A stretch of DNA of 64,000 nucleotides from Pseudomonadales bacterium (GCA_036405915.1 DASWWP010000053.1:26343-90342); one strand, 5' to 3'. Positions 41,064-63,591 are shown, numbered from the stretch's first letter. The notes: a model not told the origin generated them from the letters alone. Numbers and translations: made by a program.

Positions 41064-41079
41064 CCGAAAGTAGACATGA

Positions 41080-47518: not shown

Positions 47519-47578
47519 AAAAGTAAGGCGCTGACAGGGCGCGACACTGACAACAATAACGAGAAGAGGTAATCCCAT

Positions 47579-48808
47579 ATGGAAGCCGGCAATGTACTGA
47601 CTATTGCGAGTGATGGCTTTGGTGCGGCGGAAATCGTGTTCTGGAGCGCCGCGTTCCTGCTCGCGTACACCTACGTCGGCTATCCCCTTCTCGCCTGGTT
47701 GCGCAGCCGGCTGTTCCGCCGTGCGCCGCGCAAGAGCGACATCACGCCGCGCATAAGCATCCTGTGCGTTGCACACAACGAAGCCCGGCGCATCCGCGAC
47801 CGCATCGAAAACCTGCTGGCACTCGACTATCCGCGCGAGCTCGTCGAAATCGTCATCGCGTCCGACGCGTCGACCGACGGCACCGTGGACATCGCGCAGG
47901 AATATGCCGCATCCGGCGTGCGCGTCGTGCAGTTCCACGAGCACCGCGGCAAGCCTGCCGTGCTGAACGAACTGATTCCACAGCTGCGCGGCGAAATCGT
48001 CGTGCTGATGGATGCACGCCAGCGCATCGACCTGCAGGCACTGCGCGAACTCGCCGCGAACTTTGCCGACCCGCGCGTAGGCGCCGTCAGCGGCGAACTG
48101 CTGCTCGACCCGGAATCCGGCGATGCACGCACGGGCAAGGGCGTCGGCTTCTACTGGCGCTACGAAAAATTCATCCGCTTCCACGAGAGCCGCGCCGATT
48201 CGACCGTCGGCGCTACTGGTGCGCTGTATGCGCTGCGGCATCGCCTCTTCCAGCCGATTCCGTCCGATACGCTGCTCGACGACGTGCTGATCCCGATGCA
48301 GATCGCGCGCCAGGGCTACCGCGTGCTGTTCGAGCCAGCCGCGCGTGCGTACGACGTCGTCGCGGCGTCGCCGCAGGCCGAGATGACGCGCAAGGTGCGC
48401 ACGATTGCCGGCAACTTCCAGCTGATGTGGCGCGAGCGCTGGCTGCTGAATCCACGCCGTAACCGCCTGTGGTTCCAGACGCTGTCGCACAAGTACTTCC
48501 GGCTGCTCGGCCCCGTCTGCCTTGCACTCGTACTCGCCAGCAACCTGCTGCTGCTCGAATATCCGTTCTATGACGTCGTCCTCGCGCTGCAGGTGCTGTT
48601 CTACGCCGCGGCCGTTGCGGGCCACATGAGGAAGAATGCCTCCGGATCGTCGATGCTGATGAACGTCGCCTATGCCTTCTGCATGCTGAACTGGGCGACG
48701 GTGCTCGGCTGCTACCGCTTTGCCTGCGGACGCCAGCAGGTCACCTGGCAGAAAGCGCAGCACGCCGCTCCGGCGCCTGCCGCGCAACCTTCCGCCGGAG
48801 ACCAGTAA
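47579..48808 (+). CDS. Membrane-embedded family-2 glycosyltransferase
   Basis: N-terminal TM, ISILCVAHNEA, ASDASTDGT, VLMDARQ. Three or four C-terminal TM segments. Confidence 0.85.
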   Translation: MEAGNVLTIASDGFGAAEIVFWSAAFLLAYTYVGYPLLAWLRSRLFRRAPRKSDITPRISILCVAHNEARRIRDRIENLLALDYPRELVEIVIASDASTDGTVDIAQEYAASGVRVVQFHEHRGKPAVLNELIPQLRGEIVVLMDARQRIDLQALRELAANFADPRVGAVSGELLLDPESGDARTGKGVGFYWRYEKFIRFHESRADSTVGATGALYALRHRLFQPIPSDTLLDDVLIPMQIARQGYRVLFEPAARAYDVVAASPQAEMTRKVRTIAGNFQLMWRERWLLNPRRNRLWFQTLSHKYFRLLGPVCLALVLASNLLLLEYPFYDVVLALQVLFYAAAVAGHMRKNASGSSMLMNVAYAFCMLNWATVLGCYRFACGRQQVTWQKAQHAAPAPAAQPSAGDQ

Positions 48809-48810
48809 CC

Positions 48811-49245
48811 ATGACAACCGACGAAGCGACGATCGCGACGCGTACCGCGCAAACACTACACGCCGACGCGGCGGTCGCAACGCAGCACGCCACGCGCCCG
48901 TGGGGCGGCTGGAAAGTGCTGAACGGGGGCGACGGCTTCACAGTCAGGATGATCGAGGTAATGCCGGGCCACCGCACGAGCCTGCACTACCACTATAACC
49001 GCTCGGAACACTGGGTCGTCGTCGCCGGCAAGGCGCGCATCATCATCGGCCAGCAGCGCTACGACATGCACCTGATGCAGTCGGTGCTGATTCCCGCGCG
49101 CACGATCCACCGGATCGAGAATCCATACACGGATACGCTGCAGATCGTCGAAATACAGCGAGGCGACCGCCTCGATGAGGACGACATCGTGCGGCTCGAA
49201 GACGATTACCAACGTTTACATCTTGCTGGAGGAATCAGACTATGA
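48811..49245 (+). CDS. Cupin domain protein, type II phosphomannose isomerase C-terminal domain-like
   Basis: RPWGGWKVL, MPGHRTSLHYHYNRSEHWVVVAG, HRIENP, IVEIQRGDRLDEDDIVRLEDDY. Confidence 0.8.
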   Translation: MTTDEATIATRTAQTLHADAAVATQHATRPWGGWKVLNGGDGFTVRMIEVMPGHRTSLHYHYNRSEHWVVVAGKARIIIGQQRYDMHLMQSVLIPARTIHRIENPYTDTLQIVEIQRGDRLDEDDIVRLEDDYQRLHLAGGIRL

Positions 49246-50174
49246 AATATCTCGTAACAGGCGGCGGCGGTTTCATCGGTTCGCACATCACCGCGGCGCT
49301 CGCTGCGTCGGGCAAGGACGAAGTCGTCGTATTCGACAACTTCTCGACCGGCAACCGCGCGAACATCAAGGACGTCAACTGCACTATCGTCGAAGGCGAC
49401 CTGCGCAACCAGGCTGCACTCGACGAAGCCATGAAAGGCGTGGACACCGTATTCCACCACGCCGCGCTGTGTTCGGTGGCGAAGTCGATGGAAGATCCCT
49501 CTACTACGCACGACGTGAACGTCACCGGCACGCTGAACCTGCTCGAAGCCTGCCGCAAGGCGGGTGTGCGCCGCGTCGTGTTCGCTTCGTCGTCGTCCGT
49601 GTACGGCGATTCCGAAACGTTGCCGAAGACGGAAAAGGATCCCGTGGCACCGCTGTCGCCATACGCCGTGTCGAAACTGATCGGCGAGCATTACTGCCAG
49701 CTGTATTTCAAGACCTTCGGCCTCGAGACCGTCGCACTGCGCTACTTCAACGTATTCGGCCCGCGCCAGTACCCGAACTCGGAGTATGCGGCGGTGATCC
49801 CGCGCTTCGTCAGCGCGATGCTGCAGGGTCGCACGCCGGAAGTGTACGGCGACGGCTCGCAGACGAGGGACTTCACGTACGTCGGCGACATCGTGCAGGC
49901 GAACCTCGCCGCGGCGAGTTCGAAAGACGCGCCGGGGCAGATCATGAACATCGCCTGCGGCGGCCGCTTCAGCCTGCTGGACCTCCTCGACAACCTGAAG
50001 AAAATGACGAACATCGATGTGAAACCCATCCTGCATCCATGGCGCGCCGGAGACGTGCGCCATTCGCAGGCATCGATCGAACGTGCTAAAGAGGTGCTGA
50101 ACTTCGCACCGCGTGTAGCCTTCAGTGAAGGCCTGCGCGAAACGGTTGCGTGGTATCAGCAAGCATACCGATGA
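49242..50174 (+). CDS. NAD-dependent nucleotide-sugar epimerase (extended SDR, WbpP/TviC-like)
   Basis: VTGGGGFIGSH, SSSSVYG, catalytic SPYAVSK. ATGA overlap upstream. Confidence 0.88.
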   Translation: MKYLVTGGGGFIGSHITAALAASGKDEVVVFDNFSTGNRANIKDVNCTIVEGDLRNQAALDEAMKGVDTVFHHAALCSVAKSMEDPSTTHDVNVTGTLNLLEACRKAGVRRVVFASSSSVYGDSETLPKTEKDPVAPLSPYAVSKLIGEHYCQLYFKTFGLETVALRYFNVFGPRQYPNSEYAAVIPRFVSAMLQGRTPEVYGDGSQTRDFTYVGDIVQANLAAASSKDAPGQIMNIACGGRFSLLDLLDNLKKMTNIDVKPILHPWRAGDVRHSQASIERAKEVLNFAPRVAFSEGLRETVAWYQQAYR

Positions 50175-51535
50175 ACGCGGTCGCCGCGCTGCGGCGGCGC
50201 ATCGACGCGAAGCGGGACCCGCACGGCCTGCTGAACACGCCGCTGGCGGCGTATACGCTTGGCACTGCACAACTCGTTGCGAGCCACCTTCCCTTCCCTG
50301 TGGCTCGCAAACTGTCTCTGCTCAGCGCCGCGTCGCGGCGCTTTACGCGTGGCTTCATGCTCGAACGCTGCCGCCGTGCGTTGCAGCCGTGGCTCACACC
50401 GGAGAAGGTCGATGCCTGGCGCGCGCACCAGATCGGCTGGCAGCGCTACTACGGCAGCTTCGGCGCGATCAACAGCAACCGCGCGCTGACCACGAGCCTG
50501 CTGCTGAAGGAGCCCGGGCCGAACGGCGAGAAAGGCGTGCTGTACTGTTCGTTCGAGTTCAACTGGATGAAGTTGCTCGCGAACCACGACATCCGCCGCT
50601 TCCTCGCCGACTACCTGCTCGTCGGGGCATCGTCGTACTCGCCCGGCGACCACCGCGTCATGGCCAGCCTGTGCGGCCTGGCGCCAGACCCGCTGTTCAT
50701 CGGCATATCGAATCGCACCGACATCGCGCAGTACGACCTGTTCGCTCCGTGGATACGGCCGGTGCCGATCATGGCCTGCGACTGGCTCGACGAAGACAAC
50801 TTTCACCCCGTCCCGCAGCGGGAGCGCAGCATCGACATCCTGATGGTCGCGCACTTCGCGCACCTGAAGCGGCACTGGATCCTGTTCGAGGCGCTGAGCA
50901 AGATGCGCCCCGACCTGCGCGTGACGTTGATCGGCCGACCCGGCGACGGCCGCACGGCGCAATCGCTGCGCGACGACGCGAAGGCCTTTGGCGTGCCCCA
51001 GGAGCTGACGATCGTGTCGAACGCGGAGTTCGACGAGGTGACGAATCATCTGTGCAATGCGAAGGTCTCGCTCGTTCTGACGCGCCGCGAAGGCTCCTGC
51101 GTATCGGTCACCGAATCGATGTTCGCCGACACACCGGTGATCCTGATGGAGCGTTCGCACATCGGTTCCGGCGCCTACATCAACCGCCATACGGGGCGTT
51201 TCGCGACGCGCGCGACGCTGCCACAGACGCTTACCGAACTGATCGAACATCCGGGCCTGTGCAGCCCGCGCGCGTGGGCCATCGACAACATCTCGGCACG
51301 CATCGCGTCACGCAAGCTGAATACGATCCTGAAACAGCATTGCATGGAGACGGGCCAGCCGTGGACGCGCGACATCGCTCCGCTCTGCTGGCGCTACGTT
51401 CCGCGCTATCTCGACTCGATCGATGCGCTGCGCCTGCGCGGCGGGGTCGATCGCCTGCGAGAACAGCACGGCATCGTGCTCGAGGAATTCGTCTCCGAGC
51501 AGCATGCCCTGCAGCGGCACCGGCGGGCTTCCTAG
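50171..51535 (+). CDS. Glycosyltransferase-like protein (GT-B C-terminal half recognisable, N-terminal half unassigned)
   Basis: Part of ORF 50150..51535. ATGA overlap. ILMVAHFAHLKRHWILFEAL, VSLVLTRREGSCVSVTESMFADTPVIL resembles the GT1/GT4 E-x7-E region. Confidence 0.55.
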   Translation: MNAVAALRRRIDAKRDPHGLLNTPLAAYTLGTAQLVASHLPFPVARKLSLLSAASRRFTRGFMLERCRRALQPWLTPEKVDAWRAHQIGWQRYYGSFGAINSNRALTTSLLLKEPGPNGEKGVLYCSFEFNWMKLLANHDIRRFLADYLLVGASSYSPGDHRVMASLCGLAPDPLFIGISNRTDIAQYDLFAPWIRPVPIMACDWLDEDNFHPVPQRERSIDILMVAHFAHLKRHWILFEALSKMRPDLRVTLIGRPGDGRTAQSLRDDAKAFGVPQELTIVSNAEFDEVTNHLCNAKVSLVLTRREGSCVSVTESMFADTPVILMERSHIGSGAYINRHTGRFATRATLPQTLTELIEHPGLCSPRAWAIDNISARIASRKLNTILKQHCMETGQPWTRDIAPLCWRYVPRYLDSIDALRLRGGVDRLREQHGIVLEEFVSEQHALQRHRRAS

Positions 51536-51667
51536 CCTCGCGCGCAGGCAACACCTGAACCTCGAGCGTGATCGCTCGACCAAAAATGCGTGGATCACCT
51601 CAGTGATCAGCAGAGCTCGACGCGAAATACTCGCGCCCCACCACAGGTTCACAAGGGGACACTCCAC

Positions 51668-52561
51668 ATGAAAGCTCTGTTTGCCGCTGGCCTTCTGTTC
51701 GCATCCGCTACCGCGCTCGCACAGCCCGTCGCATGGCCGTATGCCGAGGAAGAAGGCATCCACTGGATCGAAGGGAAGACCGTCAACATCACCTATTCGC
51801 ATACCGACGCACCGGCGACCGTGACGCAGGCGATGGCGAACCAGGTGCTGGCCGACGTCGAGGCGCGTTTGAACGGCCTCGGCATCTCGGGACTGAACGT
51901 AACGATCGGGCGCCGTGACATCACGACGGCCTGTTCGTACCGCGAACGCAACTCGGTCCATATCTGCTGGGAACCGCGTGACGGCCGCCGCGCCGACTCG
52001 ATCAACACCGGTTACACCGACGGCAGCGAATTCTGGCGCGAAGGCCTCATCATCCTCGGCAACCAGGCCGACTGGACGGACCAGACGCGTCCGCTGTACC
52101 AGCAGGTGCAGCACTATCTGCTGCACATCCTCGGCTTCGCCCATCCGGAACGCGAACCCGATCGCGCCATTTCCGTCATCAACAACAACTCGCTGGACCT
52201 GACCCAGCTCGACATCGACGGCCTGCGCACGATGTACGGCGGCGGCCGCTGCGCGTTGCGGTATGAATCCAACGGCACCGTGCGCGTCCCGTTCGTGATG
52301 TACCAGGGCAGCGCCTACACCGCGCGTCTGCAGCACGACGGCGGCCGTGGCCTGACGATCGTGCCGGGCAGCCTCGGCCGCTACGGCAACGCCAGCTTCA
52401 ACGTCAGCAAGCCGATTCCGACTACGCCGTGCCACGGCCTTTCGATCGACGGAAGCGGCGAATTCCATGTTCCCGAAGTATGGATCGGCGGGCAGTTGCG
52501 CTGGGCCACGCTGCGGATGGCGAACGGCGGATTCACCGTCACGAATTCGGGCGTGAAATAA
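51668..52561 (+). CDS. Secreted matrixin-like (metzincin-like) protein with HYxxHxxGxxH motif, copy 1
   Basis: Part of ORF 51590..52561. Signal peptide MKALFAAGLLFASATALAQP. IHWIEGKTVNITYS, QHYLLHILGFAHP, LDIDGLRTMYG. Unassigned ~110-aa C-terminal domain. Confidence 0.6.
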   Translation: MKALFAAGLLFASATALAQPVAWPYAEEEGIHWIEGKTVNITYSHTDAPATVTQAMANQVLADVEARLNGLGISGLNVTIGRRDITTACSYRERNSVHICWEPRDGRRADSINTGYTDGSEFWREGLIILGNQADWTDQTRPLYQQVQHYLLHILGFAHPEREPDRAISVINNNSLDLTQLDIDGLRTMYGGGRCALRYESNGTVRVPFVMYQGSAYTARLQHDGGRGLTIVPGSLGRYGNASFNVSKPIPTTPCHGLSIDGSGEFHVPEVWIGGQLRWATLRMANGGFTVTNSGVK

Positions 52562-52619
52562 CGCGCCGCGCCGTACCGGAATCCATACTCACAACAAACT
52601 ACATATGCGGGGATCCATC

Positions 52620-53474
52620 ATGAAATTGTCAGCCTCCTGTTTATTCGCAGCAGCAACGCTCGTGTCCGGCATCGCGTTCGCGCAGCCGGCGCCCTACTCG
52701 GCCCAGGAACGCATCCACTGGATCGATGGCCAAACGGTGACGATCACGTACTCGCCCGCCGGCGCGCCGGCGCAGGTATCGAGCGCAGCGGCAGCCAAGG
52801 TGCTTGCCGACATCGAGGCGAAATTCGACAGCCTCGGCATCGCCGGCCTCGACGTCGCGATCGGCAACCGCGAAGTCGCGAATGGCTGTGCCGGCGTGGG
52901 CCGCAATACCGTGCACATCTGCTGGGAGCCGCGCACCGGCACGACGGCAGACGCACGCAACACCGGCAATACCGACGGTTCGGTGTTCTGGCGCGAAGGC
53001 ACGATCATCCTGTCTTCGTCGACGACGTGGACCGAAGCATCTGTATACGCGACGCTTATGCACTACATGCTGCACGTGCTCGGCTTCGGCCATCCGGTGG
53101 GGGACTCCGTGCAGAACGGCGCGGCAGACCTGACGGCGCTCGACATCAGCGGCCTGCAGACGATGTATGGCGCCGGCTCCTGCGCGCTGACCTATGACGC
53201 GACCCTGCGCCAGGTGGAAATTCCGTTCGTGAAATATCGCGGCGGCACGTATACCGCGCGGCTGCAGCACAATGGCGGCAACGACTTCACGATCGTGCCT
53301 GGCAGCATTGGCATGCTGAATTCGGCGAACATGCCGACTTCGCGCTGCCATGGCCTCGCGATCGACGCCAACAACGACCTGTACATCCCGCAGGTGAACG
53401 TCGGTAACAGCCTGTTCTGGGCCAACCTGCGATTCGAGAATGGCCGCCTGACGCTGACCGGCCGCGGCCAGTAA
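52620..53474 (+). CDS. Secreted matrixin-like (metzincin-like) protein with HYxxHxxGxxH motif, copy 2
   Basis: Part of ORF 52605..53474. Signal peptide MKLSASCLFAAATLVSGIAFAQP. IHWIDGQTVTITYS, MHYMLHVLGFGHP, LDISGLQTMYG. Collinear with copy 1. Confidence 0.6.
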   Translation: MKLSASCLFAAATLVSGIAFAQPAPYSAQERIHWIDGQTVTITYSPAGAPAQVSSAAAAKVLADIEAKFDSLGIAGLDVAIGNREVANGCAGVGRNTVHICWEPRTGTTADARNTGNTDGSVFWREGTIILSSSTTWTEASVYATLMHYMLHVLGFGHPVGDSVQNGAADLTALDISGLQTMYGAGSCALTYDATLRQVEIPFVKYRGGTYTARLQHNGGNDFTIVPGSIGMLNSANMPTSRCHGLAIDANNDLYIPQVNVGNSLFWANLRFENGRLTLTGRGQ

Positions 53475-53550
53475 CCACGCCACACGAAATCGGGGCCAGT
53501 CCTGCATCGATCGACGTTCGATCGGTGCGGGGCTGGCCCCGAACTCATTT

Positions 53551-53979
53551 TCAGGCCCTTTTGATTGCCGCCCAGAACGTCGCGCGCACGAGCGTGTGCC
53601 CGGGCCGGCTTTCGATCCGGAATTCATCGGCCATGCGGTTGATGCCGGGCAGGCCGAGGCCTGGATCGCCCGAGCTCGAGTAGCCGGCGAGCATCGCCTC
53701 GTTCAGGTCGGCGATGCCGGGGCCCTCGTCCCATGCCACGATGCTGAGTCCCGCGCGCGAGCCATTCGAACAGAAGCCGAGCCGGATCTCGCCGGTTTTC
53801 GCGTACGTGAGGATGTTGCGTGCGAGTTCGGAGATGGCGGTCGTGACCATCAGCACGCGCGGGGCGGGAAATTCGAGTTGCAGCGCAAGCGCCCTGCCTT
53901 CGGCGCGCGCCTGTGCGATCACGTCGACGCTGCCGGGTTCCTCGAGGCGGAAACGGGTGAGCGTCTGCAAATCCGTCAT
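53551..53979 (-). CDS. Orphan RsbT-type serine kinase (HATPase_c_2) paralogue
   Basis: TAISELARNILTYAKTGEI, DEGPGIADL, GYSSSGDPGLGLPGINRMADEF. About half the positions match the operon-encoded RsbT at 58872..59351 by eye. Confidence 0.8.
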   Translation of the reverse strand: MTDLQTLTRFRLEEPGSVDVIAQARAEGRALALQLEFPAPRVLMVTTAISELARNILTYAKTGEIRLGFCSNGSRAGLSIVAWDEGPGIADLNEAMLAGYSSSGDPGLGLPGINRMADEFRIESRPGHTLVRATFWAAIKRA

Positions 53980-53992
53980 AGTTGAAACGCAT

Positions 53993-54026
53993 GCGGGGAC
54001 AGACCGGTATCCCGATCTGTCCCCGC
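53993..54026 (-). terminator. 11-bp perfect hairpin between the 992-aa gene and the orphan rsbT-like gene (terminator, attenuator or RNA-stability element)
   Basis: GCGGGGACAGA (53993-54003) / TCTGTCCCCGC (54016-54026). Only 13 nt separate it from the downstream ATG and no strong U-run follows. Confidence 0.4.
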
Positions 54027-54052
54027 CCCTTGGTCTTGCGGTTGTAGTGCTG

Positions 54053-57031
54053 TTACTGCGCGCGAATCACGGCGTCCTTGACGGTGCCGCCCACCGAGTA
54101 CAACAGTGCGGCGGCGCGCAGCGTCGTCGTGGCCCGCGCAGGGCTCGAGTAGAACGCTACACCATTCTTCACGTAGCTGACGACACCATTTTCCACGGTG
54201 ATACGTAACGTATCGCCTTCGTTGAACGTGGTGTCGGCCATGTACTTGCCGCTGTCACGCGCTTCGGCGATGTTGCCCTGCAGGCGCAGGCTGTAGGCAA
54301 GCGTGGCGCCGTCGGAGCTCAGGCCGATGTAACGTACCTTGTCTTCGACCGTCGCGCTGATCTGCATGGAGCCGTTGCCGTTCTCGATGCTCTGCGTTGC
54401 AACTGCCATCGCATCGGCGCAACCGTCGCAGCCGGCGCTCTTGCGCACGCGGCCTTCTTCGGCCGTCACGTTGATGAGGTTGCTCCAGGTCACCGCGCTG
54501 ACCGGCGTCGCGATCTGCGCGCCGGCGATGCCGCTGCCCGTCGAGTACAACGCCACGTCGCCGCGCAGTACGGCAGCCGGTGCCGCGGTGCTGGTGTAGA
54601 ACACCGTGCCGTTCTTCGCGTAATTCACCTTGCCGCCGTCCACAGTGATACGGAACACATCGCCAGCGACGAAGGTCGTATCCCACTTGTACACGCCGTT
54701 TTCACGCACTTCCACAGCGGTGCCCTGCAGGCGCAGTGCATAGTCGATGTCCAGTGCGGTCGGGCCGGTATTACGCGCGCCGAGGCCGATGAAGCGCAGG
54801 CTGTCTTCGACCGTGGCGGTGAACTCCAGGTAGCCGCGGCCTTCGATTTTCTGCATCGATACCGCGCCCGCGTCGGAACAACCGTCGCAACCGCTCATCT
54901 TGCGCACCCAGCCGTTCGCGTCGCCGAAGGTATTGACGGTTTCCGTCCACGCGATCGGGGCAGGCGTACCGGACAGCGGCGTGCCGGCCGTGATGGTGTA
55001 GTCGGGCGAAGTCGCGACGTTGCCGGCGGCATCGCGCGAGCGCACGCGGTAGTGGTAGACCTTACCCGGCGAGAGGCCGGCCAGTTCGACAGCGTGGTGC
55101 ATGTCGAACGTGGCGCTGATCGTCGTTACCCGCTCGTACGCGGTCGTCAGTCCGTACTCGACGCGCTGCTGTGCGGGTTCGTTCGTCGACCAGTTCACTT
55201 TCACGCTGCTCGAGCCCGTGTTCGTCGCGCGGATGTTCGTCAGCAGCGGCGCGGCCAGGTCCTCACCACCGACGTTCGGCAGCAGGCCCGGCGTCGTGAA
55301 GGTCTGGTTGGCCGAGTAGCTTGCATTGCCGTCCGCATCGGCCGACTGCACGCGGTAGTGGTACGTCGTGCTCGGCTTGAGACCCATCAGGATGTGGGCG
55401 TGCGTCGTGCCGGTCTTGGCGCCGAGCGAGGCCGTCAGGCCGTACGCGGTCGTCGTGCCGTATTCGATGCTGCCGTCGGTGACTTCGCTCGTCTGCCATG
55501 CAATCGCAGCGGCGTTGCTGGTGATCAGGCCGGCGCTGACGTTGCTGATCTGCGGCGGCGTTGCGTCGCCCGTTTTCGACGGCCACGTCGGCGCGGGAGC
55601 CGGAACAGGCAGTGTCGGAGTGGCTTCCGATCCTGGCGCGGGAGCCGGTGCCGGGGCGGGAGCCGTGATCGGCGCGCCGTTCGTCAGCAATTGCGACGGC
55701 ACTTTCACGAGGAAGGCGTCGAGGCGCGAGCCGCCCATGTTGCTGGTCCAGATGAAGTACTGGCCGGTGACGTCGAGGTTGCCCTTAGGCATGTTGTCGT
55801 AGTCGTCGGTCTTGCGGCTGTCGAGGTTCGTCATGACGGGCGCGACGACCAGCGTGCGGCCCGAGCCATCGAGCATGAAGCAGACGATTTCGTTCGATTC
55901 GCCAGCGTTGCGGCGGTTCGCGCTGCTGCCGCAGGAATACTGCGATGCCGGGCTCGCGTTCAATGCGTTCGTGTGCGTGACGTGGTTCGGCGCGCCGACG
56001 TTCCAGTCGGTGTTCGAATACGCGACTACACCGCTCAGCGTGCTCTTGTTGAAGTCCCAGACTTTCCAGGTGTTCGCTTTCGGCGCCCAGTTGTCGTTCG
56101 CCACCATGTAGCCGAAACCGAGGTCGGAATGGCCGCCGGCGCCGTCACTGTCGCGCAGCAGGCGTTCGCTGCCGGTCGCGAGGTCGATGATGCGGTTGTC
56201 TTCACCTTCGGCGCCGTCGACGTTTTCCTTGATCACGAGCCACTTGCCGCTCCTGTCGATCTGGCACTCGTCGTAGTCGCCCTTCTTCGGGAAGTACTGC
56301 AATTTGCCGGTGTCGGTTTCATAAGCCATGCAGCCCAGCGACGCGTAGGTCGTCGAGTCCTTGATCGTGGCCGAATGCACGCGGTCGTCGTTGCTCGAAT
56401 GGATCTGGAAAACGATGCGGTTCGCGCCGAGCTTGGCGGATACGTCGACGATGGTCTCGTACTGCTTCGTCATCACGTCATAGCGCAGGATCTTCGAGCC
56501 GGAGTGCAGGTAGATCTTGGTCGGTAGTGTCGCGCTGAAGTAATAGCCTTCGCCGCTGGCACCGGAATACGCCGTGTTCGAATCGAAAACGGGGCCGAGG
56601 TTCGTCAGTTGCTCGGTGACCTTGTTGTACTGCAGCAGCGTCAAACCGGCGCCGCCCTTGGTCTTGTTCAGCCCGATCATGATCAGCATCGTGTCCTTGC
56701 CGACATGGTTGTTGATGTTGCGCCAGTACGAATAGCCAATCGCGCTGACGCAGTCGGCGCCGCCGCAATCGGCGGCATTCGTCAGGCGCACGCCCTGCGT
56801 GTTGTAGGGCGCCGGGAACGTGAACTTGCCCTTGCTTGGAAGGAAGGAATTTATCTGCGACGGCGACAGCAGCGGCTCGACGACGTTGCTCAGCGTGGCT
56901 GGCAATTCGACGAATCCGCCGAGCACCTGGGACTGCGCTGCGACGGGAGCAAGGCTGAAGAGAAGCGAGAAAACTGATGGAACGAGCGTATGGGCGCGGA
57001 GGAGGCGCGCCGCCGGTGGAAACGAAAACAT
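54053..57031 (-). CDS. Large secreted multidomain protein: propeller-like N domain, Pro/Ala linker, two Fn3 domains, two LamG/concanavalin-like repeats
   Basis: 992 aa. Signal peptide (..APVAAQ|SQ). aa ~35-450 unassigned, beta-rich. APITAPAPAPAPAPG linker. Two Fn3 units (IEYGTTTAYG..TTYHYRVQSADADGN and VEYGLTTAYE..KVYHYRVRSRDAAGN). Two ~150-aa C-terminal repeats. Confidence 0.8.
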   Translation of the reverse strand: MFSFPPAARLLRAHTLVPSVFSLLFSLAPVAAQSQVLGGFVELPATLSNVVEPLLSPSQINSFLPSKGKFTFPAPYNTQGVRLTNAADCGGADCVSAIGYSYWRNINNHVGKDTMLIMIGLNKTKGGAGLTLLQYNKVTEQLTNLGPVFDSNTAYSGASGEGYYFSATLPTKIYLHSGSKILRYDVMTKQYETIVDVSAKLGANRIVFQIHSSNDDRVHSATIKDSTTYASLGCMAYETDTGKLQYFPKKGDYDECQIDRSGKWLVIKENVDGAEGEDNRIIDLATGSERLLRDSDGAGGHSDLGFGYMVANDNWAPKANTWKVWDFNKSTLSGVVAYSNTDWNVGAPNHVTHTNALNASPASQYSCGSSANRRNAGESNEIVCFMLDGSGRTLVVAPVMTNLDSRKTDDYDNMPKGNLDVTGQYFIWTSNMGGSRLDAFLVKVPSQLLTNGAPITAPAPAPAPAPGSEATPTLPVPAPAPTWPSKTGDATPPQISNVSAGLITSNAAAIAWQTSEVTDGSIEYGTTTAYGLTASLGAKTGTTHAHILMGLKPSTTYHYRVQSADADGNASYSANQTFTTPGLLPNVGGEDLAAPLLTNIRATNTGSSSVKVNWSTNEPAQQRVEYGLTTAYERVTTISATFDMHHAVELAGLSPGKVYHYRVRSRDAAGNVATSPDYTITAGTPLSGTPAPIAWTETVNTFGDANGWVRKMSGCDGCSDAGAVSMQKIEGRGYLEFTATVEDSLRFIGLGARNTGPTALDIDYALRLQGTAVEVRENGVYKWDTTFVAGDVFRITVDGGKVNYAKNGTVFYTSTAAPAAVLRGDVALYSTGSGIAGAQIATPVSAVTWSNLINVTAEEGRVRKSAGCDGCADAMAVATQSIENGNGSMQISATVEDKVRYIGLSSDGATLAYSLRLQGNIAEARDSGKYMADTTFNEGDTLRITVENGVVSYVKNGVAFYSSPARATTTLRAAALLYSVGGTVKDAVIRAQ
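54056..54955 (-). repeat. Internal tandem duplication encoding two ~150-aa domains, each with a GCDGC motif
   Basis: GWVRKMSGCDGCSDAGAVSMQKIE..ATVEDSLRFIGL..YALRLQG..FRITVDGGKVNYAKNGTVFY versus GRVRKSAGCDGCADAMAVATQSIE..ATVEDKVRYIGL..YSLRLQG..LRITVENGVVSYVKNGVAFY. Confidence 0.8.
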
Positions 57032-57181
57032 TGAAGAACCTCGGGGGCTTTTATAATCGGTGGTGTCGGGTGTTTTATTGCTCGCGAGGTATGCCCACCC
57101 CTGCTAGCGGGGCTTTTTATACTGGACACTTGAAACATATTTATGACGTGGATGTAACACAGTGGTAAAACACCGTCTGAT

Positions 57182-57202
57182 TGTGGCCACTTTGTGACCA
57201 CA
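57182..57202. promoter_or_regulatory. Near-perfect 9-3-9 inverted repeat TGTGGCCAC-TTT-GTGACCACA in the divergent control region
   Basis: Read directly. One mismatch. Sits between the divergent 992-aa gene and rsbR. Confidence 0.3.
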
Positions 57203-57522
57203 CTCACGTTACAAGACTGAGGTACAAAAGAGTGGGGAACCTTTGCCCGATCTGCTTGACGCGACGTGGCGTTTGGCGCCAGCAAAGGCCCTCCGGCAGG
57301 GGTTCTTGCAGGCCTTTCCCCGATGCCTTTTCGGGTATTCGCCTGATATAGCACAGGAAGGGACCCTAGTAGTTTGCCGCCCACACTGCGGTCGGTCCGG
57401 ATGGAAAATAACCCTAATGGCGCTACGGTATTGCCGTAGCAGGGTCCCGGCGGAACCGCAGGCGGGTTCAGGCAGCTTTCTGAAACCGGCAACAAGCAAA
57501 TTCAAAACAGGGTGATTGCGAT

Positions 57523-58497
57523 ATGAGAGACGACAAAGAAGGAAAACGCGGCCTGGCCCCCGTAAAGACGGCGCGGCGCGTAGGGCAGCGGCCACAGTAT
57601 CTGGCCAGTGAGGAGCTGTTGAGCCCGCCTGTCGATGAATCCTACATTGAAGTTCTGCGCGAACTCGTCGCTCACCTGCGCCAGAAGCGTACCGAACTGC
57701 GCGAGGAATGGGCCCGCCGCATCATGCAGGCGCGACTGTTGAAGGCGATGACCGAGGACGAGATCCTCGCCGAGTGTTCGGCCGTATACGACAACTACCT
57801 CGGTACGCTCGAAACCGGTTCGCTCGAAGCCCTCGAAGCCTACGCTCGCGACCTTTCCGAACGCATCATTCCGCGTGGCGTCGAAACGCATGAGGTACTC
57901 GGCATCGTACTGCTGCTGAGGGACGTACTCGCCCGCTCGCTGTTCGCGAAGTACGGCCACAACGAAAGCATCCTGTTCCGCGTACTCGACGCGTACGAAC
58001 CGGCTGCAAACAGGATCGCAAACACGGTGGCCGTCGGCTTCGTGCAGGAGCGCGAACGCGTCATCCGCCAGCAGCAGGAAGCCATTCGCGAACTGTCGAC
58101 TCCAGTATTGCCGGTACGCGAACGCCTGCTGATTCTTCCCATCATCGGCATCATCGATCCGCAGCGCGCGCGCCAGCTTACTGAACAGGTACTGCGCGGC
58201 ATCCGCGTGAACCGCGCACGCGTCGTCGTAATGGACCTCACCGGCGTACCGTCGGTCGACGCGGCCGTTGCAAACCATCTTGTCCAGACCGTGGAAGCCT
58301 CGCGCCTCGTCGGCGCGAACGTGATCGTGACGGGCCTGTCGCCCGAACTGTCGCAGACCCTCGTCACGATCGGCGTGGACCTCGGCAAGATGTTCACGGT
58401 GGGCGACCTCCAGGGCGGTATCGAAGAAGCCGAAAAACTCCTCGGCTACAAGGTCGTACCGATGAATCCCAAAAACGACTTCTCGTCGGTAGGCTAA
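57523..58497 (+). CDS. rsbR: RsbR-type stressosome sensor (N-terminal helical sensor domain + C-terminal STAS)
   Basis: ELSTPVLPVRERLLILPIIGIIDPQRARQLTEQVL, VVVMDLTGVPSVDAAVANHL, GANVIVTGLSPELSQTLV. Confidence 0.85.
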   Translation: MRDDKEGKRGLAPVKTARRVGQRPQYLASEELLSPPVDESYIEVLRELVAHLRQKRTELREEWARRIMQARLLKAMTEDEILAECSAVYDNYLGTLETGSLEALEAYARDLSERIIPRGVETHEVLGIVLLLRDVLARSLFAKYGHNESILFRVLDAYEPAANRIANTVAVGFVQERERVIRQQQEAIRELSTPVLPVRERLLILPIIGIIDPQRARQLTEQVLRGIRVNRARVVVMDLTGVPSVDAAVANHLVQTVEASRLVGANVIVTGLSPELSQTLVTIGVDLGKMFTVGDLQGGIEEAEKLLGYKVVPMNPKNDFSSVG

Positions 58498-58501
58498 GGC
58501 T

Positions 58502-58879
58502 GTGGAAATCCCAATTCTCAAACAGCGGGATTATCTGATCGCATCGGTGCAGTCCGTACTGACCGACGAGGATCTGGTGAATCTGCGCGACAAGCTTGTC
58601 CAGCAGGTGGGCCGCTACCGTTCCGACGGCGTGATCCTCGACGTAACCGGCATGGATGTAATCGATTCCTTCTCCGTGCGCACGCTTCGCGACCTTGCGC
58701 ACATGATTCGCCTGCGCGGCGCGACGACCGTGATCGTCGGCATCCAGCCCGAGGTTGCCTTTTCGATGATCCAGCTCGGCCTGCGCCTGAAAGACGTGCC
58801 GACCGCCCTGGATCTCGAGGAAGGCCTCGCGTATCTCGACCGCAAGAAAGGGAAAAGGACGCTGCCGCCGCATGAGTGA
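58502..58879 (+). CDS. rsbS: RsbS-type STAS-domain stressosome scaffold / antagonist
   Basis: GTG start. IPILKQRDYLIASVQSVLTDEDL, VILDVTGMDVIDSFSVRTL (conserved Ser), VIVGIQPEVAFSMIQLG. Confidence 0.85.
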   Translation: MEIPILKQRDYLIASVQSVLTDEDLVNLRDKLVQQVGRYRSDGVILDVTGMDVIDSFSVRTLRDLAHMIRLRGATTVIVGIQPEVAFSMIQLGLRLKDVPTALDLEEGLAYLDRKKGKRTLPPHE

Positions 58880-59351
58880 GAAACCACCCAGCCTGCCTTT
58901 CGGGTCAGGAGGCGCCGGTACGATTCCCGGCGGCAAGAACAGCCCCCGCGACGTGCGCGTAGAAGCACGGGTCACGATCAAGGCTGTCGAAGACATCGTG
59001 GAAGCACGGCAAAAAGGCCGCGCACTGGCGCAGGAGCTCGGGTTCTCGATGACCCAGTCCACGCTCGTCGCGACCGCCATTTCCGAGCTCGCACGCAACA
59101 TCGTGCTGTATGCGAAGACCGGCGAAATCATCCTCTCGCGCGTCAGCACGGATCATCACGTAGGCCTCATCATCATCGCCGCGGACAAAGGTCCCGGCAT
59201 AGCCAATATCCAGCATGCGCTGATGAGCGGTTATTCCTCGTCCGGCGGGCTTGGCCTCGGCCTTCCCGGCGTTCGGCAGATGGTCGACGAGTTCGACATC
59301 AAGAGCCGCCCGGGCGAAGGGACGCAGGTTACCGCGCTGATGTGGTTGTAA
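58872..59351 (+). CDS. rsbT: RsbT-type serine/threonine kinase
   Basis: Overlaps the rsbS end by 8 nt. TAISELARNIVLYAKTGEI, DKGPGIANI, GYSSSGGLGLGLPGVRQMVDEF. Confidence 0.88.
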   Translation: MSEKPPSLPFGSGGAGTIPGGKNSPRDVRVEARVTIKAVEDIVEARQKGRALAQELGFSMTQSTLVATAISELARNIVLYAKTGEIILSRVSTDHHVGLIIIAADKGPGIANIQHALMSGYSSSGGLGLGLPGVRQMVDEFDIKSRPGEGTQVTALMWL

Positions 59352-59379
59352 GGCGCGTGCGCGCGAAGGACGGCAGGGA

Positions 59380-59988
59380 ATGAAGAAGACCGGCATCGTG
59401 GAGTGGTCGGTGCGAGAACGCACGCTTCCCGGAGAGACCTATTCCGGCGACCGCTGCCTCGTGAAGGAAGTTTGGGAAGGCGTACTGATCGCCGTCATCG
59501 ACGGCATCGGGCACGGCGAAGAAGCTGCGAAGGCGGCCGACTGCGCGGTGGCCACGATCGAAGAGAACGCCGACCGCTCGTTTTCGCTGCTGCTGCAGAA
59601 ATGCCATGCGAACCTGCAGAAGACGCGCGGTGTCGTCATGAGCCTCGCGTACGTCGATGACCAGAGAACGATGACGTGGATGGGCGTCGGCAACGTGGAA
59701 GGCCGGCTTATCCGGCGCCGCATACAGTACTCGGACAAGACCGAGGCACTGCTGCTGCGCACCGGCGTCATCGGCGGCGATGCGGAGTTCACGCCGAGCT
59801 TCTACCCGCGAGGGCTCGCGCTCGTGCGTGGCGACCTGCTGATCATGGCGACCGATGGCATCAGGAGCGACTTCGACGTCGATGTCGACATCGCCTCGGG
59901 TCCCCGGCGGATCGCGGACGATATCATCGAAAACAAGTGCAAACCGAATGATGACGCACTGGTCTTCGTCGGCCGGTATACCGGATAG
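59380..59988 (+). CDS. rsbX: RsbX-like PP2C/SpoIIE-family phosphatase
   Basis: 202 aa. SGDRCLV, IAVIDGIGHGEEAA, LIMATDGI, DDALVFVGRY. Confidence 0.8.
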   Translation: MKKTGIVEWSVRERTLPGETYSGDRCLVKEVWEGVLIAVIDGIGHGEEAAKAADCAVATIEENADRSFSLLLQKCHANLQKTRGVVMSLAYVDDQRTMTWMGVGNVEGRLIRRRIQYSDKTEALLLRTGVIGGDAEFTPSFYPRGLALVRGDLLIMATDGIRSDFDVDVDIASGPRRIADDIIENKCKPNDDALVFVGRYTG

Positions 59989-59996
59989 AACCTGGG

Positions 59997-60932
59997 ATGG
60001 GGATCCAACTGAACGTGGCCGAGAACCTGAACGACTTTTCCAGCCAGTATCAGAAGATGCTGAAGAGATACCTGCTGGAGGGCGGCGAAGAATATTTGCA
60101 CGGCGCGTACGAGCTCGGGCGCAAGGCGCTGGGCGGCGGGCTGGGCCTGCTCGACATCACGTATGCACACCAGGCCGCATTGCCCGTGCTGCTGCAGAAT
60201 ACCGAAGACGACCGGTTCCTGCTGCTCGTGCGCGCAGCCAACCGCTTTCTCGACGAGACGCTGTCACCATTCGAAGTCTCGCGCCTGAGCAGCATGGATG
60301 CGAACTCCGCGCTGCGGCGCCTGTACGATGTGCTGGAAGAAGAAGCCAAGCGCATCGCGCACGTGCTTCATGACGATGCCTCGCAGCTGCTCGCGGTGGC
60401 CTACCTGGAACTCGCGGACATCGTGCGCACGTCGCCGGGCCCGGTGGCCGAACGCGTCGGCGTCGTCATCACGCACCTCGACGAGATACGCGAACAGATT
60501 CGCCGGCTGTCGCACGAACTGCGGCCGCTGATTCTCGACCAGCTTGGCCTCGTGCCGGCCCTGAACTTCCTCGCGAACGGCTTCACGAAGCGCTCGAGCC
60601 TCCAGATCGTGATCACAGGCGATACCGGCGGCCGCCTGCCGCAGGCCATCGAGACGGTGCTGTATCGCTGCGTGCAGGAGGCCCTGAACAACGTGAACCG
60701 CCATGCAAAGGCGACACGCGTGGACATCAAGGTGTGGGTCGAGGACGAATGCATCCACTGCGTCGTGCGCGACAACGGAGTTGGTTTTGAGGTACCCGAG
60801 GACCGGAAACGCATGTTCCGCGGCCTCGGTCTGGTAGGCATACATGAGCGCGTGGGTGCGCTCCATGGTGAATGCAAACTTTCATCCGCTCCTGGAGAGG
60901 GAACGGAACTGCAGGTGGTGATCCCGCTATGA
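59997..60932 (+). CDS. Soluble histidine kinase: RsbU_N-like N-terminal domain + HisKA_3 + HATPase_c
   Basis: N-terminus FSSQYQKMLKRYLLEGGEEYLHGAYELGRKAL...DITYAHQAALPVLL parallels my recollection of the RsbU N-terminal (RsbT-binding) domain. H-box RIAHVLHDDASQLL. N-box QEALNNVNRHA. G-box DNGVGF, GLGLVGIHERV. No TM segment. Confidence 0.8.
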   Translation: MGIQLNVAENLNDFSSQYQKMLKRYLLEGGEEYLHGAYELGRKALGGGLGLLDITYAHQAALPVLLQNTEDDRFLLLVRAANRFLDETLSPFEVSRLSSMDANSALRRLYDVLEEEAKRIAHVLHDDASQLLAVAYLELADIVRTSPGPVAERVGVVITHLDEIREQIRRLSHELRPLILDQLGLVPALNFLANGFTKRSSLQIVITGDTGGRLPQAIETVLYRCVQEALNNVNRHAKATRVDIKVWVEDECIHCVVRDNGVGFEVPEDRKRMFRGLGLVGIHERVGALHGECKLSSAPGEGTELQVVIPL

Positions 60933-61573
60933 ACGTAGACATGAAGAAACACATCGTACTTGCCGACGACCATTCCATGTTCCGCCAGGGCCTGGCCGCG
61001 CTTCTCGAACGGGAAGGCTTCCACGTCGTGGGCCAGGCCACCAACGGCCACGAAGCGATCCAGCTCGTGCAGCAGCACAAACCGCTGCTCGCGATCCTCG
61101 ACTTCGGCATGCCGCTGCTGAACGGCATCGACGCCGCGCGCGAGATCCACAAGCGCGCACCGGATACGCAGGTATTGCTCCTCACGATGTTCGAGGACGA
61201 TGCCTATGTGCTCGAGGCTCTGCGTGCCGGCATCCGTGGCTACGTGCTGAAGGCGCAGGCCGCGCGCGACCTGATCAATGCGATCAGCGAAATCCTGCGA
61301 GGTTCGATCTACCTCAGCCCCGGCATCTCCGAGGCGGTGGTGAAGGCCTACATGTCGAAGGACGAACAGCCCGCGGAAGTGCTGACCGATCGCGAACGCC
61401 AGGTGCTGCAGCTGATCGCCGAAGGGCATACGACGAAGAAGACGGCGTCGCTGCTCGACCTCAGCGTCAAGACCGCCGAGTCGCATCGCACGCGCATCAT
61501 GCAGAAGCTCGACATTCACGACACGGCGGGCCTCGTGCGCTACGCAATCCGCCGCGGCCTGATCAAGCCCTGA
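60929..61573 (+). CDS. NarL/FixJ (LuxR-type HTH) response regulator 1
   Basis: ATGA overlap with the kinase gene. LADDHSMFRQGL, ILDFGMP, LLLTMF, YVLK, LTDRERQVLQLIAEGHTTKKTA. Confidence 0.9.
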   Translation: MNVDMKKHIVLADDHSMFRQGLAALLEREGFHVVGQATNGHEAIQLVQQHKPLLAILDFGMPLLNGIDAAREIHKRAPDTQVLLLTMFEDDAYVLEALRAGIRGYVLKAQAARDLINAISEILRGSIYLSPGISEAVVKAYMSKDEQPAEVLTDRERQVLQLIAEGHTTKKTASLLDLSVKTAESHRTRIMQKLDIHDTAGLVRYAIRRGLIKP

Positions 61574-61610
61574 GGCGCAACACCATCCACCCGGGGCGGT
61601 CTTTGCCGAC

Positions 61611-62255
61611 ATGATACGGATTCTGCTGGCGGACGATCACGCGTTGTACCGCGAAGGACTGCGCCTGCTCCTCGAGCGGGCCGGCTCGTTCACGATCGTC
61701 GGCGAAGCAGCCGACGGCGGCGAAGCCGTGCGCCTCGCCTTCGAACTGCTGCCTGACGTGATCCTGCTGGACATCAGCATGCCGGTTTACAACGGCATCG
61801 AAGCGACGGCGCGGATCCGCAAGGCCTGGCCGCACGCCAAGATCGTGCTGCTATCTATGCATGAAGACGAAACGACGATCCTCGAAGCCCTGAAGGCCGG
61901 CGTGAACGGCTACGTGTTCAAGACGCAGACGGAGCGCGACCTCGTGCACACGATCGAAGTCGTCGCGGACGGCGCATTCTTCCTTGGCCCGAACATTCCG
62001 CACAGCGTGATCGACGCGCTGACGCACAATGCGTCGCATGTATCCGATGCGCTGACGGAGCGCGAACAGCAGATCGTCGCGCTGATCGCTGACGGGAAAA
62101 CCTCGCGTGAGATCGCGGAGATCCTTCACCTGAGCCCGAAAACCATCGAGTCGCACCGCGCGCGAATCATGCAGAAATTGAAGCTCCAGCAGACGACCCA
62201 GCTCGTCTGTTACGCCGTGCGCGCGCAGATGCAGCGTCTCGCACCTCTTCGTTAA
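61611..62255 (+). CDS. NarL/FixJ (LuxR-type HTH) response regulator 2
   Basis: LADDHALYREGL, LLDISMP, VLLSMH, YVFK, LTEREQQIVALIADGKTSREIA. Confidence 0.9.
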   Translation: MIRILLADDHALYREGLRLLLERAGSFTIVGEAADGGEAVRLAFELLPDVILLDISMPVYNGIEATARIRKAWPHAKIVLLSMHEDETTILEALKAGVNGYVFKTQTERDLVHTIEVVADGAFFLGPNIPHSVIDALTHNASHVSDALTEREQQIVALIADGKTSREIAEILHLSPKTIESHRARIMQKLKLQQTTQLVCYAVRAQMQRLAPLR

Positions 62256-62408
62256 CGAAGCGTTGCCTCGCTAGGGTCTTTTCCCCCGCCGCTCTCAGGC
62301 ACATTTCCGGGCTGAAAGCAGGCATTTCCCGCTGTGATGAGCTGCGTTACACGAGTACCTTTTCACCCGTTTCAGGGAATTCCTCAACAACAACTCAGGA
62401 GTGCTTTC

Positions 62409-63041
62409 ATGCGCATCATCCTTGCTGACGACCACACAATGTTCCGCCGCAGCCTCGCCCAACTCCTCGAGAGGGAAGGCTTTGAAATCATGGCGGAGGC
62501 TTCTGACGGGATGGAAACTGTCGCACTGGCCGCAAAACTCGACCCCGACGCCGTCGTATGCGACATGAACATGCCGCACCTCAACGGTGTCGAAGTAACC
62601 CGCGAACTGCAACGCCAGGGGCTGCGCGCGAAAACCGTGATCCTGACGATGTTCGAAGACGATGTCAGCGTACGTGAAGCACTGCGTGCCGGCGCCACCG
62701 GCTACGTCCTGAAGACCCAGGCCCCGACGGACCTCGTCCAGGCCCTGCGCGAACTCGCCGATGGCCATCGTTACCTGAGCCCCGGCATCACGAATTCCGT
62801 CGTCGACGCGTGCCTGCGCCGTAACGACGACGAGGACCAGGCCGACGCCCTGACCTCGCGCGAGCGCCAGATCCTGCAGCTCGTTGCCGAAGGCAACGCC
62901 ACGAAGGAAATCGCCCGCCTGCTCAATCTCACGATCAAGACCGTCGAATCGCATCGCAGCCGCCTGATGCGCAAGCTCGACACCGGCAACATCGCAGGCC
63001 TCGTACGCCACGCGGTGCGCCAGGGCATCATCCGTCCGTAA
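62409..63041 (+). CDS. NarL/FixJ (LuxR-type HTH) response regulator 3
   Basis: Part of ORF 62334..63041. AGGAG before ATG 62409. LADDHTMFRRSL, VCDMNMP, VILTMF, YVLK, LTSRERQILQLVAEGNATKEIA. Confidence 0.9.
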   Translation: MRIILADDHTMFRRSLAQLLEREGFEIMAEASDGMETVALAAKLDPDAVVCDMNMPHLNGVEVTRELQRQGLRAKTVILTMFEDDVSVREALRAGATGYVLKTQAPTDLVQALRELADGHRYLSPGITNSVVDACLRRNDDEDQADALTSRERQILQLVAEGNATKEIARLLNLTIKTVESHRSRLMRKLDTGNIAGLVRHAVRQGIIRP

Positions 63042-63565: not shown

Positions 63566-63591
63566 GGAAAGGCGCGACAGCCGAAGCTGTC
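63566..63591 (-). terminator. UUCG-tetraloop hairpin overlapping the stop of the OmpR-type gene
   Basis: Minus strand reads TGACAGC-TTCG-GCTGTC-GCGCCTTTCC. The U-run is weak. Confidence 0.4.

Follow-up and report, generated by a model that had tools for sequence, protein, structure and literature searches.

A stressosome cassette linked to a conserved exopolysaccharide cluster in a Pseudomonadales genome: synteny, conserved non-coding blocks and a candidate regulatory connection

In Bacillus subtilis and Listeria, the stressosome pathway comprises RsbR-RsbS-RsbT, RsbU, RsbV, RsbW and SigB. In this study, we focused on an rsbRSTX cassette that adjoins an exopolysaccharide (EPS) cluster in a 64,000-nucleotide stretch of DNA from a Pseudomonadales bacterium (GCA_036405915.1, DASWWP010000053.1:26343-90342), hereafter called the window. 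Modules of rsbRSTX without SigB are widespread, and in some alpha-, beta- and gamma-Proteobacteria an RsbU_N domain is carried by the downstream signalling protein, which has been read as the output; a route from RsbT through RsbU_N to downstream signalling proteins has been proposed (PMC9237108). In Vibrio vulnificus, two-component genes are linked to the module (VvRsbRSTX-VvD1-VvD2) and the mutant phenotype concerns iron metabolism, and the RsbT partner and the regulon in Vibrio are described as unclear (PMC9237108). Gram-negative rsbRSTX modules with outputs other than sigma-B are credited to Pané-Farré, Lewis and Stülke (2005), as cited there (ref. 22 in PMC9237108). The signalling half of the system is already described (Pané-Farré 2005; Heinz 2022), and its coupling to EPS genes is new within the literature searched, which yielded no paper tying a stressosome locus to an adjacent EPS cluster. 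An earlier sequence-only reading of the window, which knew of no described system of this composition, therefore needs to be narrowed: RsbRSTX followed by an RsbU_N protein is in print for Proteobacteria (PMC9237108), while the EPS coupling was not found in the literature searched.

The window comes from a metagenome-assembled genome (MAG) of 3.88 Mb that is 91% complete, and its genes were assigned by Pfam scans and by translation of its open reading frames. All the genes that the sequence-only reading had placed in 50171-63041 were found, in the same order. The signalling genes are the following (REC, receiver; GerE, NarL/FixJ-type DNA-binding domain; RR, response regulator).

57523-58497, plus strand: RsbR (Pfam STAS, 52 bits; cut-off 22.6)
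58502-58879, plus strand: RsbS, a single STAS domain with the Ser in VIDSFS (Pfam STAS, 44.8 bits)
58872-59351, plus strand: RsbT, GHKL serine kinase (Pfam HATPase_c and HATPase_c_2)
59380-59988, plus strand: RsbX, SpoIIE/PP2C (Pfam SpoIIE, 31.5 bits)
59997-60932, plus strand: soluble histidine kinase with RsbU_N, HisKA_3 (H-box AHVLHD) and HATPase_c (Pfam, translation)
60929-61573, plus strand: RR1, REC and GerE, in ATGA overlap with the kinase gene (Pfam)
61611-62255, plus strand: RR2, REC and GerE (Pfam)
62409-63041, plus strand: RR3, REC and GerE (Pfam)
63590-63967, minus strand: OmpR-C, a stand-alone OmpR/PhoB-type winged-helix protein of 125 aa without a receiver domain (Trans_reg_C, 84 bits)
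53551-53979, minus strand: oRsbT, an orphan RsbT-like GHKL serine kinase (HATPase_c_2, 41.7 bits)

By coordinates, the stressosome genes stand in the order R-S-T-X. The RsbRD_N match at the N-terminus of RsbR scores 23.5 bits in Pfam, slightly below the cut-off of 24.3; the Ser of VIDSFS in RsbS is presumably the equivalent of B. subtilis Ser59; and the N, G1 and G2 boxes of RsbT are present (ISELARN, DxGPGI and GLGLPG). The RsbU_N domain of the kinase (PF08673, residues 17-94) scores 37.6 bits against a cut-off of 25.5 and is the sole RsbU_N in the window's genome. In an alignment, RR1, RR2 and RR3 all retain the acidic pocket, acceptor Asp, T/S and Lys. OmpR-C lies outside the range covered by the sequence-only reading, yet it travels with the module. 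In distant lineages (L054, L079, L123, L071 and L061), RsbR is 70-89% and RsbS 65-83% identical to the window's proteins, an unusually high conservation; the kinase and RsbX beside them fall to 40-55% identity.

Like V. vulnificus and other Gram-negative rsbRSTX modules, the cassette keeps the R-S-T-X order without RsbV, RsbW and SigB, and the next gene encodes a two-component protein. It differs from that of V. vulnificus in the RsbRD_N-type rather than globin N-terminus of RsbR, in having a soluble HisKA_3 kinase and three NarL-type regulators in place of a hybrid kinase and a second signalling protein, and in its physical tie to an EPS cluster. With the SigB pathway of B. subtilis and Listeria it would share the logic of RsbT sequestration and release, the reset phosphatase RsbX and the docking of RsbT on RsbU_N; unlike in that pathway, RsbU_N is fused to a histidine kinase, not to a PP2C phosphatase, and there is neither a partner switch nor a sigma factor.

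The EPS genes upstream, their tail and the gene that faces the cassette are as follows (GT, glycosyltransferase; NDP, nucleoside diphosphate; PMI, phosphomannose isomerase).

38847-41063, plus strand: heparinase II/III-like protein (Pfam/NCBIfam)
41275-43239, plus strand: AsnB-like amidotransferase (Pfam/NCBIfam)
43339-44631, plus strand: GT4 (Pfam/NCBIfam)
44628-45935, plus strand: NDP-sugar dehydrogenase (Pfam/NCBIfam)
about 45941-47518, plus strand: beta-helix protein (Pfam/NCBIfam)
47579-48808, plus strand: membrane GT2 (Pfam/NCBIfam)
48811-49245, plus strand: PMI-type cupin, EPS tail (Pfam)
49242-50174, plus strand: NAD epimerase/dehydratase, EPS tail (Pfam)
50150-51535, plus strand: GT1 (GT4-type), EPS tail (Pfam)
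54053-57031, minus strand: secreted 992-aa protein with an N-terminal beta-propeller (Pfam for Fn3, AlphaFold2 model, Foldseek)

A scan of one genome per species gave 80 propeller loci, at 45-69% identity, which span Gammaproteobacteria, Acidobacteriota, Nitrospirota, NC10, Verrucomicrobiia, Binatia and others. Their neighbourhoods were searched by tblastn with the window proteins, and counts were taken over the 45 loci with full flanks. In two genomes of the same genus, G004 and G017, the window's order recurs as GT2, PMI, epimerase, GT1, oRsbT, propeller gene, RsbR-S-T-X, kinase and RR1-3, lacking only the two matrixin-like genes treated below; the EPS-tail genes are the same set in the same order, and the RsbR-S-T-X orthologues are 85-94% identical. 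The full cassette also occurs co-directional with three tandem propeller genes (L054 and L079), divergent from a propeller gene beyond which GT2 lies (L061), and, in an Acidobacteriota MAG (L071), with RR1 and OmpR-C between the kinase and the propeller gene. As a check on its island, the sequence-only reading had proposed to ask by comparative genomics whether the gene blocks co-occur. For the gene of the 992-aa protein, the orphan rsbT, the rsbRSTX-kinase-regulator block and the EPS tail, co-occurrence was confirmed in G004, in G017 and on metagenome contigs.

Simpler versions of the cassette are found with the propeller gene as well. A reduced form (an RsbT-like protein, a kinase, one or two regulators and OmpR-C) adjoins it in about ten further species. 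Where this form is divergent from the propeller gene, as at L029 (G008:C3), L030+L006 (G011) and L031+L032 (a second copy in G004), it consists of an RsbT-like kinase, a HisKA_3 kinase without a recognisable RsbU_N and two regulators; the second regulator, with DG for DD and Glu at the acceptor position, is a pseudo-receiver. An RsbU_N domain in the reduced-cassette kinases was considered and rejected, as their N-termini do not align, except in L044. RsbR and RsbS are missing altogether from G008 (100% complete) and G011 (98%), two genomes of the same genus that carry the reduced form. In Nitrospirota, the propeller gene and GT2 are accompanied only by an RR1 orthologue (54-62% identity), a receiver and OmpR-C. 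Nitrospirota included, RR1 orthologues beside propeller genes are 50-94% identical, and the OmpR-C orthologues next to the module, which accompany propeller/GT2 and RR1, 50-90%.

The EPS genes are the more constant neighbours. Among the 45 fully flanked loci, 29 have a GT2 homologue within 8 kb of the propeller gene, 15 have RR1 near it, 11 have OmpR-C, 10 each have RsbT and the kinase, and 5 have RsbR/S/X. GT2 and the propeller gene are usually directly convergent, and beyond GT2 homologues of the beta-helix protein, NDP-sugar dehydrogenase, GT4, AsnB-like and heparinase II/III-like proteins follow in many phyla; by tblastn, up to 48 loci from different phyla carry homologues of the EPS genes of 38847-48808 next to the propeller gene. 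On this genomic evidence, the heparinase II/III-like, AsnB-like, GT4, NDP-sugar dehydrogenase, beta-helix, GT2 and propeller genes form a conserved, uncharacterised EPS cluster. The best sequence match of GT2 in the PDB is 6yv7, deposited as 'Glycosyl transferase, family 2' (E 1e-21). The cluster resembles XrtA/PEP-CTERM EPS loci in that their amidotransferase and stp1 are the best NCBIfam matches of the AsnB-like protein (TIGR03108, 585 bits) and GT4 (TIGR03087, 259 bits). Membership of that class was rejected: unlike in those loci, both scores fall under the curated cut-offs (816.9 and 316.65), and no exosortase (PF09721) was detected in the window's genome, which is 91% complete.

Against a background of 400 evenly drawn Gammaproteobacteria genomes, both partners are rare, with the propeller in 0/400 and an RsbU_N kinase in 1/400. 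Because of this rarity, and because the adjacency is repeated through several gene orders, comparative genomics indicates that the linkage of the cassette and the propeller/EPS genes is not chance. What the analysis establishes directly is the gene content, the integrity of the domains, the fold, the synteny across several architectures, the rarity of both partners and the conservation of non-coding blocks. The single functional island that the sequence-only reading envisaged is partly supported by synteny, the regulation itself being what we infer; the several gene orders and the rarity of both partners favour it, while a genome with the cassette and without a propeller gene (G153, discussed below) does not.

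The propeller gene and rsbR are transcribed away from each other across a 491-nt gap, in which an alignment of orthologous gaps from five loci delimits four conserved blocks.

57032-57522, no strand: divergent control region, 491 nt (five-locus alignment, four conserved blocks)
57113-57175: block A, including TGTAAC-N5-GGTAAAAC at 57153-57171 (five-locus footprint)
57193-57208: CRP-like box, TGTGA-N6-TCACG (five-locus footprint)
about 57311-57350: block C, no motif named (five-locus footprint)
57361-57377: block D, GGACCCTAGTAGTTTGC (five-locus footprint)

The operator-like palindrome noted here by the sequence-only reading does exist, as a 9-3-9 repeat at 57182-57202 with 8/9 complementary positions, which reaches into the CRP-like box no further than its left half; it was rejected as an operator, since its left arm is not kept in the five orthologous regions. 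Within the window, the CRP-like box, block A and block D are each present a single time, and block D has no second copy elsewhere in the genome. An operator common to this region and to the gaps at 37.3-37.7 and 26.8-27.3 kb was likewise rejected: the 12-mers that they share do not exceed shuffled sequences, and the blocks are unique. As the conserved blocks are absent from these other EPS gaps, the suggested control of the neighbouring EPS operons is without sequence support. With up to one mismatch, the CRP-like box is present in 3/74 propeller upstream regions, above the control rate of 0.3%, but it is confined to close kin plus L044 and L038 and was rejected as a general feature of propeller promoters. 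A Crp-family gene is present in the window's genome, split between the ends of contigs C59 and C216. An Rfam scan of 56900-57700 gave nothing at E <= 1, an RNA structure in blocks C-D was rejected because the covariation term was unfavourable, and a scan of the divergent gap with the sigma-70 consensus found no promoter.

An unbiased k-mer count over 26 upstream regions placed GGTAAAA, GTAAAAC and ATGTAAC at the top, exceeding the shuffled maxima. GTAAAAC lies upstream of the propeller gene in 9 of the 26 loci with an adjacent RR1 orthologue, against an expectation of about 1.0 and a count that 500 shuffles never attained, and in 1 of the 52 loci without adjacent RR1. It is a candidate RR1 half-site.

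The 992-aa protein consists of a signal peptide, a seven-bladed beta-propeller (about aa 36-455), a Pro/Ala linker, two Fn3 domains and two GCDGC repeats. In the family alignment, its N-terminal ~450 residues are conserved far above the remainder. The propeller domain has no sequence match in Pfam, NCBIfam or the PDB; none of 44 family members matches Pfam at E <= 1, and the family profile finds nothing among PDB sequences at E <= 10. The family comprises 925 clusters at 50% identity and is without a Pfam model. An AlphaFold2 model of the domain from 44 homologues is of high confidence (predicted local distance difference test, pLDDT, 90.6; predicted template-modelling score 0.91), and its best Foldseek matches are the oligogalacturonate lyases of family PL22, 3pe7 and 3c5m (template-modelling score, TM, 0.61 on the query and 0.69 on the target; E 5.5e-13), as compared with TM of only 0.3-0.48 for TolB, WD40 and peptidase propellers. 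Invariant positions over the 44 sequences include several His, Gln, Arg, Asp and Glu, which would be compatible with the Mn site (His/His/His/Gln) and the catalytic His and Arg of PL22. Membership of PL22 by sequence was rejected on the empty Pfam and PDB searches. The protein thus shares with PL22 oligogalacturonate lyase the seven-bladed propeller of its best structural match, and differs in being secreted, multidomain and linked to biosynthesis, without detectable sequence similarity. The GCDGC repeats match neither Pfam nor PDB sequences, which leaves their earlier label 'LamG-like' unverified; a true Laminin_G_3 insert is found only in the G017 orthologue. A propeller-only paralogue of 481 aa, encoded elsewhere in the window's genome (L033, G000:C13, 7749-9194, minus strand), is 81-86% identical to the N-terminal domain and stops at the linker start, and a TonB-dependent receptor gene adjoins it. 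In several lineages (L054, L079, L058, L064 and others), the propeller gene is present in two or three tandem copies.

Polymer-cleaving enzymes are encoded within other EPS operons, such as AlgL (alginate), PslG, PelA and BcsZ. The predicted fold, together with the synteny with EPS genes, suggests that the 992-aa protein is a polymer-processing enzyme and probably not a matrix adhesin or the structural matrix protein that the sequence-only reading had implied. Because the EPS-cluster synteny and the lyase-like fold are joined by a uronate-forming NDP-sugar dehydrogenase in the cluster, which by its NCBIfam/Pfam assignment is the uronate supply, it most likely cuts or trims a uronate-containing polymer, by analogy with these enzymes. 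Like them, it would be a secreted or periplasmic glycan-cleaving enzyme encoded and conserved with synthase genes; unlike them, it combines a PL22-like propeller with Fn3 and GCDGC parts and has a gene that is convergent on or divergent from the operon, not inside it. No paper tying a PL22-like propeller to EPS biosynthesis was found in the literature searched.

Taken together, we consider, with moderate confidence, that the EPS cluster has been joined to a plug-in regulatory cassette that acts on 57032-57522 and sets the transcription of the propeller-oRsbT unit and the rsbR operon. In this scheme, RsbR and RsbS would sequester RsbT. Upon a signal, RsbT would phosphorylate RsbS, be released and dock on the RsbU_N domain of the soluble kinase, which would in turn phosphorylate at least one of the three NarL-type regulators, its core partner being RR1, and RsbX would reset the system. 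The regulators, perhaps with OmpR-C and the Crp-family protein, would act on the 491-nt divergent region and so set the transcription of both units. The propeller enzyme may then trim the cell's own polymer, as AlgL, PslG, PelA and BcsZ do in other EPS operons. We infer all the protein-protein and protein-DNA contacts of this scheme, as well as the sign of the regulation, the lyase activity and the roles of oRsbT and of the matrixin-like HYxxH proteins.

The same linkage would be seen if the cassette and the EPS cluster had been co-transferred or co-inherited without regulation and the regulators had their targets elsewhere, for example in a general stress regulon; synteny cannot separate shared function from shared transfer, and co-transfer of an island would suffice. 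Several observations weigh on this side or against the regulatory scheme. G153, a complete gammaproteobacterial genome and the only one of the 400 with the cassette, has RsbRSTX, the kinase and RR1 and no propeller gene anywhere, so the cassette is modular; there (L123, G153:C1:1834000-1853999) the next genes encode a PAS-GGDEF diguanylate cyclase and a Crp-like regulator, and of the latter the gene split between C59 and C216 in the window's genome is a homologue. Most propeller and GT2 loci among the 45 with full flanks are without adjacent signalling genes. The patchy spread of the propeller over many phyla, at the identities given above, suggests transfer, the presence of three regulators with one kinase suggests several targets, and the conserved blocks do not recur at the other EPS gaps, which share no motif. 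The tie between the propeller and PL22 is one of fold only, a tie at sequence level not having been found. In addition, the loci are mostly MAGs and the related genomes make the counts non-independent, and GTAAAAC was discovered and counted in the same data from such genomes. On the other hand, the adjacency outlasts at least four gene orders and the loss of RsbR/S/X, RR1 and OmpR-C remain with the propeller gene and GT2 across phyla, GTAAAAC is enriched only in RR1-carrying loci, and both partners are too rare for chance adjacency. On balance, we regard linkage without regulation as unlikely.

Secreted enzymes that degrade glycans typically carry Fn3 and binding-type modules. It is conceivable that the propeller protein, which contains such modules, is a secreted lyase foraging on foreign acidic polysaccharides, and that the cassette tunes nutrient acquisition and not the cell's own matrix. 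The PL22-like fold and the TonB-dependent receptor gene beside the C13 paralogue point in this direction, but across phyla the propeller gene is tied to GT2, GT4, NDP-sugar dehydrogenase and AsnB-like genes and not to transporters or sugar catabolism, and we consider a catabolic role improbable. Least probable of all is a post-translational route in which RsbT-like kinases, the orphan included, phosphorylate or bind the EPS machinery and transcription is secondary: RsbT-like genes do persist beside the propeller gene without RsbR/S, mostly with kinases that have no recognisable RsbU_N, oRsbT keeps its ATP-binding motifs and phosphorylation of a diguanylate cyclase by RsbT has been reported in Moorella (as cited in PMC4976288), but the linked cassette always includes DNA-binding regulators and none of the EPS proteins yielded a candidate cytoplasmic domain as a target.

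Beyond the regulatory scheme for the window, we tentatively put forward, as a possible though not the favoured extension, that the propeller loci represent a widespread undescribed EPS system of which RR1 and the receiver-less OmpR-type protein are the dedicated regulators, and to which some lineages may have added a full stressosome and others a stressosome-free RsbT-kinase pair.

The orphan oRsbT, whose N, G1 and G2 boxes are intact, is on the same strand as the propeller gene and 73 nt downstream of it, and a scan found no terminator-like site between them. The RsbT paralogue described as attached to the large protein is therefore adjoining but not fused, being a separate gene. In a tree, the orphan RsbTs from four loci group together in a single long-stemmed clade (support 98/99), and the canonical RsbTs hardly vary; the orphan clade with its long stem indicates a single duplication in this sub-lineage, followed by rapid change. 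That oRsbT provides feedback from matrix-gene expression is a conjecture.

Two matrixin-like proteins, termed pseudo-metzincins (pMZ), are encoded between the EPS tail and oRsbT.

51668-52561, plus strand: pMZ1, secreted, HYLLHILGFAH (translation, family alignment, fold of the paralogue)
52620-53474, plus strand: pMZ2, HYMLHVLGFGH, about 50% identical to pMZ1 (translation, alignment, fold)
53528-53541: terminator-like GC-rich hairpin with a T-run, between the convergent ends of pMZ2 and oRsbT

In pMZ1, Tyr replaces the catalytic Glu after the first zinc His. Over 15 aligned members, the three His and the Gly are invariant and the Glu position is occupied by Tyr, His or Gln throughout, so that the catalytic Glu is found in 0/15. 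A Pfam scan of the pMZ proteins matched nothing. The AlphaFold2 model of pMZ2 (pLDDT 81) has an extra C-terminal beta-sandwich, and all of its top Foldseek matches in the PDB are catalytic domains of matrix metalloproteinases (TM on target 0.55-0.65, E 1e-4 to 1e-3). The label pseudo-metzincin given by the sequence-only reading therefore holds at the level of the fold. The proteins share with matrixins the HxxxHxxGxxH spacing and the fold of the catalytic domain; they differ from them in lacking the general-base Glu, in the appended beta-sandwich and in having no Pfam match.

The pMZ family is small, with 11 clusters among 5.8 billion proteins. It was found in 0/40 genomes of relatives and near the propeller gene in 0/45 fully flanked loci, and it is missing from the otherwise identical islands of G004 and G017. 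The genes are rare and restricted to close kin, and they are in this island in 4/5 contexts seen. On contigs with context (L115-117, L118 and L120), they lie between the EPS tail and the propeller gene: the gene order of L115-117 is identical to that of the window, L118 has two pMZ copies without oRsbT, and L120 has a single pMZ (48% identity) without oRsbT and with the full signalling cassette alongside. A third HxxxH paralogue in the window's genome (L034, G000:C142, 8350-9321, plus strand), in which the residue following the first zinc ligand is His rather than Tyr, is located among pyruvate kinase, SDR, QueA and malate dehydrogenase genes, away from EPS and signalling genes. Since the two pMZ genes come after GT1 on the same plus strand and run up to the terminator-like hairpin, a possible terminator of the EPS/pMZ transcript, they belong to the EPS-operon side, and the divergent control region does not serve them as the sequence-only reading had supposed.

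The meaning of these results is drawn from comparative genomics of mostly uncultured bacteria. The targets of stressosomes outside Bacillus and Listeria are largely open, and the synteny singles out an EPS cluster that includes a secreted propeller enzyme, along with particular DNA blocks, which makes the EPS genes a concrete, testable candidate target of the stressosome cassette. The propeller family is a conserved member of a multi-phylum EPS cluster, with a fold nearest to PL22. The signalling input to this cluster appears layered, from regulators alone to an RsbT-kinase pair and a full stressosome, and the genomes with an RsbT-like kinase and without RsbR or RsbS question whether RsbT acts only via the stressosome. 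If RR1 and the OmpR-type protein are indeed dedicated regulators of this EPS system, it would be the first concrete regulon of a Gram-negative stressosome, and RsbT-type kinases would be able to drive histidine kinases without an RsbR/RsbS scaffold.

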